From Salinispira sp. (lineage in GTDB: Bacteria > Spirochaetota > Spirochaetia > DSM-27196 > Salinispiraceae), in assembly GCA_965226555.1 (NCBI GenBank), contig CBDDDG010000018.1, positions 42,548 to 106,547 on the forward strand: DNA of 64,000 bases. Reading direction: 5' to 3'. This document shows positions 48,001-54,000 of the stretch, piece by piece. The position numbers are program-made. The first letter of the stretch is position 1; every line of letters starts with the position of its first letter.

Positions 48001-51000
48001 TTTGCACTGTCTCGCGCCTTTGTCGTCATGTTGTAGGCATAGATTTTATAATCAGAATCATCTGCCACCCACATGGTCGTCCCATTCGACCAAATACCTG
48101 TGGGAGAAGTGTTCCCCGCGGCAGAAAGGGTCGTAAAGTCAAAATCAAAAATCTGTACCGTTTTCGTTAAATTGTTTGCACTGTCGTCTATTGTCAGTGT
48201 TATGCTTTCTTCCGAAAACCCCCCTATGGTTACCACGCCCCCGAACTGAGGAATATTTTTCCTACTGTCTTCTTCGGGAAAGTCAGAATATGCAGTGTAT
48301 TCAATGGTAAATGCGTTAGAAGGCACAACAGTAAACTCAATGTCGGGCTCCTTCGGCTTTTTCCCAAACTCCCCATAGTAAATGTTAAGGGATATTTCTG
48401 AATTCTTATTCGAATTCAGTTCAACATTGTCTGCTAATCCATCTGGAAGAGAATAACTGTCATTAAGACGGATCCCATGTAAAGGTGAACGGAGACCAGA
48501 TACATTGACCTGCTGCGATATTACTCCATCACTGTCAGTGTTCTGATTTCCCTGAATCGAGATGTTCACCTCGGAACTATATGTTCCCGCTCGCGGGGTC
48601 AGATAGCTGAGATTGTAAAAACTGTTGGCATAGCCTTCTATTACGTCTTGAATTGAGCGAAAAGCAGTTGTCAGTTCTTCAAAACTGTCTATGGCATACT
48701 GTCCGGCGTTTCCCAGTGATTTAAGAATACTAATGTGATCATCGCTGGGGCTGACACTTATTGTTATGACTCTCTTGTTTCCTCGCGTATTCAGGGCAGC
48801 ATTCAGTGTTGACGATCCCTTAGTATCTTCTCCATCGGTGAGAATAACAAGCTGCCCCCCCTGCCGAATAGCATTTTGCGAAAAGACGTTTCCCAATTGG
48901 GAAACTCCTGTTGACACCGCCCCATAGAGATCGGTTGATCCAGAACCAAGGGTAATGCTATCAATTGCCGCATGAAGTTCTGAAACAGACGATGAAAAGT
49001 CAATAATCTTGTTCGCGGACGATGCAAATGTCCAGACAGCAAATTCAGCAGTTCCCGTGCTGTCGCTGTTACCCGATACCTCCGATTCGCTAATGAGTAC
49101 CTTTGCCGCTTCTTTAACCGACGGCAAATCAGCGCCAATACTCAAACTGTTATCGAGCATAATTACTGTGCTCAGCTTGTATGGAAGTTCATCGGCTTTT
49201 CGTATGCGTATTGCCGATTCTGTTTCCGATACCGCGCTTCCCGATTCACGGATAATAAAATCAGATTCCTCCAGATCAGTAACCGGAACCCCGTCGACAG
49301 TTTCAACCGACATAAAAATATTGATATACGCAGGGTACAATGTGCTTGTGTTGTAATGATAGAGAATATAACTATCATCAGGCGGCGGCGGCGGCGGCGG
49401 GTTGCTATCATCAGGCGGCGAAACTCCGCCGTTTTCATTAGGATAGGCATAGATTTTTCCGTTATACCCATTTGCCACCCACATTGTCGTCCCATTCGAC
49501 CAGATACCGTGGGGAGAAGTGTTCCCCGCAGCAGAAAGAGTGTTGGTGTTAAAGTCCTTTGAACTGTCTCGCGCTTTCGTCGTCATGTTGTAGGCATAGA
49601 TTTTTCCGTTATACACATCTGCCACCCACATTGTCGTCCCATTCGACCAAATACCTGTGGGAGAAGTATTCCCCGCAGCAGAAAGGGTGTTAAAGTCCTT
49701 TGAACTGTCTCGCGCTTTCGTCGTCATGTTGTAGGCATAGATTTTACGAGTAGAATAATCTACCACCCACATTGTCGTCCCATTCGACCAGATACCTGTG
49801 GGAGAAGTGTTCCCCGCAGCAGAAAGGGTGTTGGTGTTAAAGTCCTTTGAACTGTCTCGCGCTTTCGTCGTCATGTTGTAGGCATAGATTTTACGAGTAG
49901 AATAATCTGCCGCCCACATTGTCGTCTTATTCGACCAGATACCTGTGGGAGAAGTGTTCCCCGCAGCAGAAAGGGTGGTGCTAAAGTCCTTTGAACTGTC
50001 TCGCGCCTTCGTCGTCATGTTGTAGGCATAGATTTTTCCGTTATACCAATCTGCCACCCACATTGTCGTCCCATTCGACCAGATACCGTGGGGAGAAGTG
50101 TTCCCCGCAGCAATAAGAGTATCGAAATCCTTTGTTGGGTCGTATTCAGAAGCCGTGTCCGTGTCCATGTCCATGTCCATCGGACACCCTACTAACATAG
50201 TTATCGCTACAGCAACTAATAATGGCATTAACTTTTTCATAAAGTTAACCTCCTTAATTTTGTATAGAAATTCCCATGGGGAATTTCTGGACATTCACCG
50301 GTGGTGTTAAAGTTTTTCAGTGGATTGGCATGCGAGATAACGGATTGGAGTTTCAGGCGCTGCTCGGGAGTGTTAGGGCAGATCGGTTCATAGAGGGGAG
50401 ATGTTAGAGCTGTTGCGGAGTTTACACCCGGTACGAGGGAAGTGAGCTGGGATAATGTGAGAAAAATATTTTTTATTTCAGAAGATTTTCTTGGGGGGGG
50501 GGTAGAATGTTTTCGGGATGTATGTTATACTCAGGATATCGGTTTGGTGCCATTGTAGATATGTGGTATGCAATCATGGTAAACATCTCCCTTTTTTGAA
50601 AGTTTATCTGAATATAATATGAGAATATTGACCGTGTCAACAAGTTTTTTCAAATTTTTTGGGATATTAAGGTTTGAACAGACCCCACTTTGACCTATTA
50701 TGCGATCATTTCTTCCGAGTGCCAAGCCCTCCATCGCTCAAGCGTCGGCCGTGTGAGCCGTTGCTCCATTATGATCGGCTTGAGCCGGAGAATATCACTA
50801 TCCACATTGGTATTCCGTTGCCTCAAAAGATCCAGCGGAGTCCCTTTGCGGTAGGTGTTGAACCGCCGGTAATTGAAATCTATCTGATACTCCTCGGCTT
50901 CCTTAAGAAACTCATTGAGCTTTGGATTCATCACCTGACTGTAGAACTCATCCTCAATGAGCCGGTGCGAGGACTCGACAGAACTGTTCCATGTGCAATG

Positions 51001-54000
51001 CCCGGGCGGAATACGCCGATACTCGACACCCGCCTGTATGAGCGCCTGCTCAAACCCCGACGTTCGGGTCTTGCTCAGATGCCGAACGGTGAACTCTGCC
51101 CCGTTATCGGTCTGAACCGTTATGCCGTTGACAAGGTCTCCGCCGCGATTCCGCAGGTGCTCCAGCAGGTACTCGGCGAACAAGGTTGTTACCATACTGC
51201 TCTTCTCATTGGCGAAGGCGTACCACAGAGCCCCTGTCGCCCGATCCCGGGCGGTTATCTGGTACTTCGGAACGTCTAAACACTTCTGAGAAAACCGCAT
51301 AGCGGGAATGTCCGTCAGATACTTGATATCAATCTGAATGCACTCGCCGAACTTCATCCTGTCGGTTACCTCCCGCAAATCTCTCTTGGGCCGCGCCTTC
51401 GGCTTCTTTGTTTTCCGCGCCCCTATCTGCTTTAGCGTCTTGATAATTGTCGGCAGGCTGTACTTCCCGCCAACTTCCGTCTGCAACTGCTTTTGCACCT
51501 GCGTTCCAATGATTTTGTTGTGATTCCGAGCCTTGGTCTGGGCAAGACTCTCGAGATGACACCAGTGCCCGAATTTCATCTTCATCGGATGATTGGTCGT
51601 GCCCCGCTTTTTGTCTTCAAGACCCTCGCCGGATTCAAAGCGCCGAACCCACCTCCGCACCGTGTTGCGCGACACCTCGAACTCCCGAGCAGCCGCCTTG
51701 ATCGAATGCTCTTGGGCATACCGAACCATCCGCAACCGCCACTCATACATCGAAGCCGCCTGATACTTCCGAGACTTGAGATGATACTGAGAATATGTGA
51801 TACTACTGTTCACTGTTTCCCTCCTTTTATGTTTTATACAACCCCCAGTGTGTACGAATAACCTTCGTTTTACACTGGGGAGGAGGGGTCAGCTCAAAGG
51901 TTTATATCCCATTTTTTCAAATTTTTCTTGTATCAAAACAGTCCCCGAACCTTAATTGAGTGAACAAGAAGGTGTATAACATAAAATACAAGAGTAAGAA
52001 ACAGAAACAGCCGATAGCGGATCACATTTCCCAGTCTGAAACCGTTACTGTCCCGCTGCTGGATTAAGCCCATAATTTCTTCGTACATTGTATGCGATAC
52101 TACCGGGCTTTCGAGGTATGTCCCATTCGTCAGACGGGCAATGTCCTTCAACACCGTACTGTTGCGTTTTGCAATAACCGTCTTATTGTCTTTTTTCAAA
52201 ACACTGTCTCCCTGGGGAATGGCAGCGCCTTCCTCAGTTCCCAGACCATAGGCAAAAATGGGAATGCCCTTCCGGGCGGCAAGCAGGGCAGCTCTGTCGC
52301 TGTTGCCGCTCAGTGAATCGCCATCTGAAAACAGAATGATAACTCTGTGAGTATTAATGCCCGGAGGAAACGACTCAATTGCCGTTTCCAGAGCCAGCTC
52401 AAGGTTACTGCCGGGTGTTGAAATTACCTCAGTATTTAAAAAGGCAAGAACATTTTCCAGAGCAAAGACGTCCGTTGTCGGGGGCAGAAGCAGGGTGCCA
52501 TCTCCCTTGAAGGCTACCAGACCCATTCGGGAACCAGTATATTTCTCGCTTAGTTCCTGTATGAAATCTCTGGCGCGCCCGAGGCGATTCGGCTGAACAT
52601 CCTCCGCAAGCATACTATATGACACATCTACCACATACATTATATCAATACCAACACGATCTTCCTCAATTGGCTCCTCCCTCCAGCTCAGCCCCGAAAG
52701 GCTCAATACAAAAAATGTATATACAAGGAGCATGCAGAGAGATGAAAGGAGCCACTTAATGAAAAATACTGAGCGCAGACCCTTCTTGTTCCAAATTGTT
52801 CCCAGTTTTTTGAGGTCCCTGCGATTGAGCCGATATTCTCTCAACTGAAACAAAAATAAGACCGGCAGGCCGAGAAACATGAGGAATATCGATAGATCCG
52901 ATAGAATCATAATAACTCTCTGAGCAGCATTTTTCTCAGAATGTAGTCCAGAACAATGAGCGCAAAGGCTGCCAATATGATCTGCCGGTGCTGGGGTTCT
53001 TTCACAACATCGACTCGAATTCGTGTTTCAACCCGTTCAAGACTGTCAATGGCTAAAAGAACCTTTTCAAAATTCTGAGGATTTGTTACGGTATAGTACT
53101 CCCCGCCGGACTGGACGGCAATCTGCTGGAGAAGATCTTCATGCTGCCTCCCCCGATATGTTGCCCGATACGGCCTTCCTGTTTCAGGATCAATAAACTC
53201 GATGAAGCCCTCTCCATCGCTTCCAATATCGACAACATAAATACGAATACCCGCCTCCACCGCAAGCGCGGTAGCCGATAAGGGACGGATTTCGCCCGCA
53301 TTGTTTTCCCCATCGGTAAATAAAATGATGAGTTTTTCATCAACAGATGAATCGAGCAAGTGAAGTGATGCCAGCGCTATGCCCATACCGAGGGCAGTTC
53401 CCTCGCCAAGCTCCAGCACCTGCAATTTTCCGACCGCATCTGTCAGGTAGTCGTATTTGAGGGTGGGCGGAACCCGCAATGCCGCTTCAGAACCAAAGGC
53501 AACCAGCCCAATGGAATCGTTATTTCTCCGTTCCACAAAGCGGCGCACTGTTTCCTGCATACTCGTAAGACGGGAGGTTCCGGCAAAATCCTGAACCGCC
53601 ATGGAGGGGGAAACATCGAGCACAAGCATAATGTCAATTCCCTGGGAAATAAATACCCGTTCCTTCATAATTTTCACCGGCCCCGCAAGACCGACAACAA
53701 TAAGCGCCAGTCCTAACAGCGACATGATCTGGGAAACAACATAGACAATGGTAAAACCATTCACAGATGCCGAAAATCCCTTTCCATTCCAGTTGCTGAA
53801 GGCAAAAAGGAAGCGTCCGCCCCGTTTTTTCCATATATACTTAATATATATGAGGGGAATGAAGAAAAATAAGAGGAGAAAGGCGGCAGGATAATCGAAA
53901 ACCCATGTTTCAGGAGTCAAAACCATGCCTCCGCCGACTGGAGGCCGCCGGCTTTGCCAGTTTTGCCAGTTTCGCCAGTTTTGCCGGCTTTGCTGGCTTT

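Follow-up and report, generated by a model that had tools for sequence, protein, structure and literature searches.

Promoter homing has been published, according to excerpts of PMC3942029, for the Mutator-type TnGBS and ISLre2 elements (p-MULT3) and for the ISKra4 group (p-MULT4). For TnGBS, a contact between the transposase and the initiation complex was proposed, which is the same model as the one favoured here, and the excerpts also name the targeting of yeast Ty3 by TFIIIB. In the IS481 family, recorded target duplications range from 2 to 15 bp and are mostly 6 bp; duplications of 15 bp are known, no target rule is given, and the origin of 15- and 25-bp duplications is left open (PMC10045372). 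The alignment in the supplement of that paper gives ISCbe2 a 15-bp duplication and lists ISSsu8 with 3 bp. An earlier survey of a Salinispira genome had described an IS481-like element inserting just upstream of promoters, and knew of no such report for IS481-type elements. Our search of open-licence PMC and bioRxiv again found no report of promoter homing for IS481-type transposases; ISfinder, TnPedia, the subscription literature and the supplement of the IS1202 preprint lay outside its scope and may bear on novelty. New here are the clade with 15-bp duplications, the shared spacing rule (+4, the hexamer lying 4 bp past the duplication) and a chlamydial variant of that rule.

The window analysed is a stretch of 64,000 nucleotides of contig CBDDDG010000018.1 (assembly GCA_965226555.1). 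The 371-aa transposase, TGG...CCA ends, 15-bp duplication and length of 1252 bp described by the survey were all found again at window positions 50660-51911 (minus strand); for whole copies, its "about 16" became 17. Taking its coordinates as contig positions (minus 42547) was rejected, since this leads inside an unrelated 1566-aa ORF. The features of the locus, and of two further element ends in the window, are as follows.

50660..51911, minus strand: IS481-like element, one of 17 whole copies, which show 0-42 differences
51885..51911, minus strand: left inverted repeat, 5' of the transposase, beginning TGG; 22/27 bases match the right repeat
50660..50686, plus strand: right inverted repeat, the promoter-facing end
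50698..51813, minus strand: transposase ORF, 371 aa, N-terminal HTH and integrase-type core
50645..50659, no strand: 15-bp target duplication, promoter-side copy, about -54 to -40 of the predicted promoter
51912..51926, no strand: 15-bp target duplication, far copy
50635..50640, minus strand: -35 hexamer TTGACA, 4 bp past the duplication and 19 bp from the element end
50611..50616, minus strand: predicted -10 hexamer TATATT, 18-bp spacer, called by consensus match
47436..50294, minus strand: gene for a 952-aa VWA-domain protein, downstream of the predicted promoter
51933..52910, minus strand: BatB-like VWA gene (match below the NCBIfam cut-off), upstream neighbour, intact, ending 21 bp from the element
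18381..18430, no strand: 50-bp remnant end of this same element, with TTGACA at 18360-18355 (minus) at offset 20 and TATATT 17 bp on
63754..64000, plus strand: 247 bp from the left end of another copy, which the contig end truncates, with TTGACA at 63734-63729 (minus) at offset 19

The layout fits IS481, with one ORF encoding an N-terminal HTH and an integrase-type DDE core in an element within 1.0-1.3 kb, and the duplication (15 bp in 10 copies, 16 bp in 1) falls inside the recorded IS481 range. Among the 10 NCBIfam families matching the transposase at E≤1, NF033577 (IS481) was the best (E 2e-32), its 112.9 bits lying below the curated cut-off of 224. IS256, ISLre2 and ISKra4, whose models the searched library presumably contained, were absent from these 10. 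The catalytic residues D162, D236 and E280 were invariant across 50 homologues, and the best structural matches were IstA of IS21, TnsB and retroviral integrases (Z 16.4, rmsd 2.4, 153 aligned). The TGT...ACA ends expected of IS481 are absent, and TGT, TGG and CGG ends are mixed among close relatives. In a quick tree of 78 unnamed rows, the clade of the element stood apart from IS481 members with 6- and 7-bp duplications. The IS1202 profile NF033594 gave 20 bits against a cut-off of 250, and where IS1202 members have a 394-507-aa enzyme, Gln seven residues after the catalytic Glu and TGT ends, the element has 371 aa, Glu and TGG. With this query, no close homologues were found in 60 genomes of the same family or order or in viral contigs, and no homologue above 25% identity in plasmids; the one match among 151 genomes of the Heimdallarchaeota phylum was the single starting copy, for which no duplication was called.

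In the source genome, TTGACA (≤1 mismatch) was found at offset 19 from 24/114 motif-defined element ends, with 5 at the next-best offset, and from 11/56 BLAST-defined ends, with 2 at the next (corrected p 9e-13), against a background of 0.56% of 766,641 intergenic positions; near-duplicate flanks (four copies of one flank and two pairs) bring the independent counts a few lower. The single peak claimed by the survey (14/60 ends) stands, and its exact count hinges on how ends are defined. A -10 hexamer follows at 16-18 bp in 10/11 offset-19 hexamers, compared with 14.5% of intergenic TTGACA-like sites. Eleven copies carry a 15-16-bp duplication, and in 9 of them a TTG hexamer with its -10 begins at +4, as surveyed; a promoter match at +4 was absent from the other two. 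The right end faces the promoter in 6 of the 9 and the left end in 3, in keeping with insertion in either orientation. AT content is 74-75% in the duplications and drops to 63-65% in the sequence farther upstream.

By crude ORF calls, every one of the 17 whole copies lies between genes, and 6 lack a target duplication; swapped flanks were considered for these and rejected, as the flanks are not shared with other ends. Repeated insertion at one target is suggested by a head-to-head pair of copies in the source genome and by adjacent copies across one duplication in genome G063 (6 ends, one beside a diverged copy) and at two gut loci, although end-to-end attack by the transposase could also have produced such neighbours. 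Assembled contigs of sequencing runs showed neither an empty site nor a circle joint. In run X4, one of the two loose ends shown has TTGCAA at offset 19.

For relatives, each distinct site bearing a duplication was scored for a -35 (≤1 mismatch), or a TT-hexamer plus -10, at +4. This signal was present at 13/15 sites in other Spirochaetia and 21/25 in Cloacimonadota (34/40 over the four genomes together), 4/6 in one Waddliaceae family, 7/8 in the clade of genomes G363, G398, G297 and G343, and 40/48 (28 families) in a clade from Bacillota whose duplications span 25-27 bp; neither the sites of one family nor the families of one clade are independent. Single copies in Sulfurovum, Firestonebacteria, Acidobacteriota and Chlamydiales agree with the rule; for single loci, automatic end calling gave a duplication from 45/159, most of the loci having failed or being doubtful. 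Canonical IS481 elements with 5-7-bp duplications gave 0/27, in a control of mainly Actinomycetota sites, whose high GC makes AT-rich promoter motifs rarer in any case, with 5 spirochaete sites of 7 bp. Long duplications do not always mean a promoter, as three actinobacterial IS481 elements with 15-16-bp duplications lie at tRNA 3' ends.

Relatives in at least seven bacterial phyla appear to share the exact spot just upstream of predicted promoters, beyond the promoter-targeting clade in Spirochaetia and Cloacimonadota described by the survey. The constant is the 4 bp past the duplication and not the distance from the element end. The survey's fixed end distance holds for this element at offset 19, but elsewhere it shifts because duplications of 14, 16 or 25-27 bp differ in length; in Bacillota, anchoring on the duplication places 40 sites at +4, sharper than the end-based 22, 17 and 5 at 30, 29 and 31. 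Promoter targeting at single-base precision is supported in the source genome and in independent genomes, judged from predicted promoters that are sigma70-type by consensus. That much of the survey's "housekeeping promoters" holds, but the genes behind them are not mostly housekeeping: many first ORFs behind source-genome targets are unassigned or lipoprotein-like, with what we take by eye to be a few core enzymes.

Direct observation covers the element's anatomy and copy number, its constant spacing in this genome and in its relatives, and the intactness of the promoter motif and the downstream gene. With the duplication ending 4 bp upstream of a predicted sigma70 -35, the transposase is probably placed by promoter-bound RNA polymerase. 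If DDE attack is 5'-staggered as usual, one strand transfer would be pinned near -40/-39 of the template strand and would abut the upstream edge of sigma region 4, a place occupied by class II activators and the proximal alpha-CTD. The second would fall 14-16 or 25-27 bp further upstream, positions one helical turn apart, so that the pinned cut would be common to all lineages while the duplication length would vary between them. Tethering may work by touching sigma4, alpha-CTD or the beta flap directly, or by trapping the bent upstream DNA. Since on the promoter side the duplication would restore the AT-rich segment upstream, expression of the gene would continue, making the site a safe harbour.

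Chlamydial targets appear to keep the same promoter position in different letters. Across 21 sites in chlamydial relatives, the -10 box begins 27 bp past the duplication in 15, without TTGACA, which speaks for placement by RNA polymerase on the promoter rather than recognition of TTGACA. Two families gave 0/14 for the +4 signal, yet 9/14 of their sites have a -10 (≤1 mismatch) starting at +27, and in genome G1235, added after the pattern was seen, 4/4 duplication-bearing copies fit. A TTWA-N7-TTAA box, presumably resembling a CtrA box, overlaps the -35 position and is found within 2 mismatches at 14/21 sites. Genome G065 has this box at the target spacing in only 3/112 strong -10 boxes (400 kb of 2.4 Mb), and in genome G068 two related families in one host pick different promoter classes; both observations suggest that the transposase or another factor adds specificity beyond polymerase.

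The transposase might instead itself read the letters beside the cut, TTGACA mostly and TTWA-N7-TTAA in chlamydial lineages, with promoters merely carrying them in exposed intergenic DNA. T, T, G at +4 to +6 is nearly invariant in clade A matches (partly a selection effect), sister families sharing a host have different motifs, and the HTH domains give weak Sigma70_r4 matches (E 0.002-0.1). Cloacimonadota targets have a near-perfect TTGACA without a clear -10 (TATAAT), and there pure readout fits as well as polymerase does. Upstream of host genes, TTGACA occurs 28 times sense and 12 antisense, with a TATAAT-like box beside 6% of 36 TTGAC[AT]; the target type there follows the host, which speaks for polymerase placement. 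Readout is nonetheless unlikely as a general account, given the -10 beside 10 of 11 source-genome hexamers, the 32/48 Bacillota sites whose -10 starts precisely at +27 and whose -35 is often degenerate, and the chlamydial -10 kept at +27 though box and -10 are uncoupled at that spacing in the host. The hexamer orientation is also opposite to that of an element-end mimic, and such a mimic was rejected as the target.

Less likely still is a tether formed, in Chlamydiae at least, by another host protein on the promoter (activator, repressor or nucleoid protein, fixed relative to the -10). The box over the -35 position and a regulon-like set of downstream genes, mostly orphan or eukaryote-domain (ankyrin, F-box, deubiquitinase and chaperone, 5/15 ORFs having a Pfam hit), would suit it, and ISAba32-group IS1202-type elements adjoin XerC sites (excerpts of PMC10132070). 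A geometry common to seven phyla, however, would need a universal factor, and an Euo site was rejected, the Waddlia Euo consensus as excerpted from PMC4989314 being matched at only 2-11 of 15 positions. Random insertion with survival of gene- and promoter-sparing copies is very improbable and largely excluded by peak shape: every whole copy is intergenic and genomes display survivors only, but survival would yield a broad upstream zone, not 24 ends at offset 19 when offsets 18 and 20 have 3 and 4, and short-duplication IS481 shows no peak.

Placement by promoter-bound RNA polymerase can be extended, tentatively and at slightly short of even likelihood, to a broad IS481 branch that docks on the enzyme with one cut pinned at +4 and the other one helical turn in or out, which would explain 15- against 25-bp duplications, IS1202 having reached the same solution at +0. 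Insertion sites would then be base-exact promoter maps in uncultured phyla and would bring to light, before effector-like genes, a chlamydial promoter class not described so far (TTWA-N7-TTAA, 11 bp, -10 box). In Cloacimonadota, where TTGACA goes with a non-canonical -10, and in environmental Chlamydiae, they would place predicted promoters with single-base accuracy, and they would give a testable handle on how 15- and 25-bp duplications arise in IS481 and IS1202 types, the question left open in PMC10045372. With its single 371-aa protein, the element is suited to studying how transposases locate bacterial promoters, a step for which polymerase contact was proposed in TnGBS, and a tool for safe-harbour integration or promoter mapping might be built on an enzyme that inserts upstream of promoters yet leaves them unharmed.

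Among known systems, Ty3 likewise pairs an integrase-fold enzyme with a fixed position set by the transcription initiation machinery, but it is a eukaryotic retrotransposon with a demonstrated protein tether, where that of the element is a probable one. The IS1202 family has a related core, shares both long duplication classes and, in the sites sampled here, is likewise found at promoters (ISTde1 subgroup duplications 15-17 bp, IS1202 subgroup 27-28 bp, according to excerpts of bioRxiv 10.1101/2022.12.17.520857 and PMC10132070). It differs in its larger enzymes, its separate branch in the quick tree and its offset of +0 instead of +4, the -35 being flush with the duplication at 9/10 and 26/30 sites, nearly all at the left end. 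The IS481 family agrees in size, single ORF and HTH plus DDE core; the element differs in its TGG ends, an NCBIfam score half of the cut-off and a D-43-E spacing against 34-36 in 6-bp members. By eye, the insertion following the first Asp and the IPP...SHR motifs of the element's clade recur in ISCbe2, and the motifs of the 25-27-bp clade recur in ISSsu8. TnGBS, ISLre2 and ISKra4, as excerpts of PMC3942029 describe them, also use a single DDE enzyme, insert at a fixed distance upstream of the primary-sigma -35, a behaviour that the element shares, and do so in either orientation when their inverted repeats are alike. Their enzymes are Mutator-type and their ends lie 15-17 bp from the -35, whereas the element has an integrase/IS481-type enzyme and a distance of 19 bp (29-31 bp in relatives) that is filled by its long duplication.

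The element carries a single reading frame between imperfect terminal repeats, as follows:

50660-51911, minus strand: IS481-like element, 1252 bp, TGG...CCA ends, terminal repeats alike at 22/27 bases
50698-51813, minus strand: transposase ORF (371 aa), the sole ORF of the element

It is bordered on both sides by a perfect 15-bp repeat, and the survey's finding of a 1,252-bp element with a 371-aa transposase, TGG...CCA ends and a 15-bp duplication was reproduced in full at 50660-51911. A minus-strand TTGACA starts 19 bp from the right end of the element, which is 4 bp past the repeat (+4), and is followed after 18 bp by a predicted -10 box, TATATT; the start of a 952-aa VWA gene lies 366 bp from the element end. 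A co-oriented gene run (51933-58146) has a BatB-like VWA gene as its last member; the 952-aa VWA gene comes next, on the other side of the element. Upstream of a strong predicted ribosome-binding site, and following the left end, the element leader (51843-51880) contains a putative 9-bp inverted repeat whose loop region spans 20 bases. An abundant palindromic intergenic repeat, the 11-base core of which occurs 290 times genome-wide, was seen at window positions 1466, 9418, 21082, 21632, 23662, 24572-24948, 58612 and 62289.

The transposase matched Pfam HTH_28/HTH_23 and rve_3 slightly below cut-off, and IS481 was its top NCBIfam family at 112.9 bits against a cut-off of 224. Residues D162, D236 and E280 are invariant across 50 homologues, 91 representatives score E<=1e-30, and the structure model (pLDDT 91.5) has IstA, TnsB and retroviral integrases as its predicted structural matches. 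The D-E spacing is 41-44 in the query clade, 41-47 in a clade with 25-27-bp duplications and 34-36 in 6-bp IS481. The element is real and IS481-like, and is neither IS1202 nor Mutator-type; because the NCBIfam cut-off is missed and the TGT-end feature is absent, it is termed IS481-type and is no canonical IS481 member.

The closest homologues of the query indicate a spirochaete host. Seventeen whole copies were counted in this genome, where about 16 had been proposed; all 17 lie between ORFs, and the duplication is 15 bp in 10, 16 bp in one and absent in six. TTGACA (<=1 mismatch) was found at offset 19 from 11/56 distinct BLAST-defined ends, and at no more than 2 ends for every other offset (background 0.56%, corrected p 9e-13). 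A -10 box follows 16-18 bp after the hexamer at 10 of these 11 ends, compared with 14.5% of intergenic TTGACA-like sites. A motif census, in which several flanks are near-duplicates, gave 24/114 ends at offset 19 (next-best offset, 5). The single-offset peak (originally 14/60 ends) and the -10 box beyond most hexamers thus both stand, and 9/11 duplication-bearing sites carry the signal at +4. Four left ends (C14:216458, C18:106301, C18:101243 and C21:93286) share a near-identical promoter flank, so either element end and promoter were duplicated together or one paralogous promoter was hit repeatedly.

The sample of relatives comprised 159 loci collected by scanning genomes and metagenomes, plus copies in multi-copy genomes; for the Cloacimonadota genome G063, 21/44 matches were entered as loci. 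Ends were placed by copy-to-copy comparison. Among 45 single loci with a called duplication, 20 were retained by hand for credible inverted repeats, the remainder being cluster members or doubtful calls; four of the 20 lack a promoter match. A distinct duplication-bearing site was scored +4 when a -35 (<=1 mismatch), or a TT hexamer plus a -10, began exactly 4 bp past the duplication. This signal was present at 13/15 sites in other Spirochaetia, 21/25 in Cloacimonadota, 4/6 in one Waddliaceae family and 2/2 singles; the pattern also holds for single copies in Sulfurovum, Firestonebacteria, Acidobacteriota and Chlamydiales, and no duplication was obtained for five further single copies. At two sites in the chlamydial genome G068 (L223, L231) a TTGAC hexamer overlaps the duplication end, 8-9 bp nearer than usual.

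A distantly related clade in Bacillota, with 25-29% identity and duplications of 25-27 bp, follows +4 at 40/48 sites, and a third clade of same-phylum genomes (G363, G398, G297, G343; 14-15-bp duplications) at 7/8. The Bacillota peak is spread over offsets 29, 30 and 31 counted from the element end but falls on one offset counted from the duplication, which makes +4, measured from the duplication, the constant spacing. The geometry claimed for Spirochaetia and Cloacimonadota therefore holds, except that the element-end offset shifts with duplication length, and the promoter-targeting habit extends beyond the one clade first proposed. In a quick tree (SH-aLRT only) the three +4 clades and two uncharacterised rows occupy one side of a branch with support 99, opposite 6- and 7-bp IS481 and IS1202; this grouping is provisional, since two of the clades were gathered by likeness to the query.

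In the quick tree two sister families from Chlamydiae are nested next to one that targets TTGACA; they have TTGACA at +4 in 0/14 sites and a -10 (<=1 mismatch) starting at +27, the sum of 4+6+17, in 9/14. In G1235, obtained after this pattern was noted, 4/4 duplication-bearing copies fit, and one copy has no duplication. Pooling gives 21 chlamydial sites: the -10 lies at +27 in 15 of them, and in 14 the -35 position is covered by a TTWA-N7-TTAA box, which is found there at only 3/112 other strong -10 boxes of G065. The promoter-like motif at insertion sites (TTWA-N7-TTAA, 11 bp, TAnnnT; L102 cluster in G065, L118 cluster in G068, L562-L569 in G1235) precedes orphan, ankyrin, F-box, deubiquitinase and CesT-family genes. 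Cloacimonadota are the mirror case, with perfect TTGACA and no TATAAT both where the elements insert and upstream of host genes (L507-L526, G063); the enrichment there of sense TTGACA but not TATAAT suggests a non-canonical -10.

That three different sets of letters occur at one and the same position points to the footprint of the polymerase, and the transposase is probably positioned by promoter-bound RNA polymerase. Direct reading of the DNA letters by the transposase is unlikely, as the chlamydial case separates position from letters. Less likely still, another promoter-bound factor would provide the tether; survival bias, with random insertion and persistence of harmless copies only, is very improbable. 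Two G068 families pick different promoter classes, which argues against a polymerase-only model and indicates that site selection has further specificity.

DDE enzymes make a 5' staggered attack. Given this, the fixed cut would hit the template strand near -40/-39, and the variable cut would lie 14-16 or 25-27 bp upstream. The duplicated segment is AT-rich (74-75% compared with 63-65% further upstream), as expected for the alpha-CTD zone of promoters, and stays on the promoter side after insertion. Adjacent copies sharing a single duplication were found; these may reflect repeated use of one site or have another origin.

Canonical IS481 with 5-7-bp duplications gave the +4 signal at 0/27 sites (18 families), a weak background because GC-rich hosts supply 22 of the sites. 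Promoter homing does not follow from a long duplication by itself: three actinobacterial members (15-16 bp) lie at tRNA ends. Actinobacterial IS481 loci L434, L436-L438, L446 and L477-L479 adjoin the 3' ends of different tRNA genes; a tRNA is present at 8/9 scanned loci, and the element starts 7-8 bp past the called tRNA end at the seven loci displayed. IS1202-family elements with long duplications (L284 cluster, G108, and L389-L463, Lactobacillales; 16-17 bp and 25-29 bp) also insert at promoters, with the -35 flush against the duplication (+0; 9/10 and 26/30 sites) and almost always at the left end.

The accessible text of PMC10045372 documents IS481 elements with 15-bp duplications and three classes of duplication that differ by about 10 bp; it gives no rule for target choice and professes to have no clue to the origin of long duplications. 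Its alignment includes ISCbe2 (15 bp), which on visual comparison is the closest named entry, and ISSsu8, which by eye belongs to the 25-27-bp clade and is listed with 3 bp. The available portions of PMC10132070 and the IS1202 preprint (bioRxiv 10.1101/2022.12.17.520857) confine xrs/dif targeting to the 5-6-bp group, and those of a recent IS-ecology preprint note that many IS481 abut coding sequences, with nothing further on targets. As the survey had also reported, no promoter rule for IS481 types was found in the open literature, ISfinder and closed papers lying outside the search. The weight of the finding lies in a +4 rule common to duplication classes and in the chlamydial case, which splits position from letters. 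Fixed-distance promoter targeting is described, in the accessible part of PMC3942029, for TnGBS, ISLre2 and ISKra4, all with Mutator-type enzymes. The behaviour thus has bacterial precedent, with a tether that we infer: the element works like ISLre2 and ISKra4, at a fixed distance upstream of a promoter, but with an enzyme of a different type.
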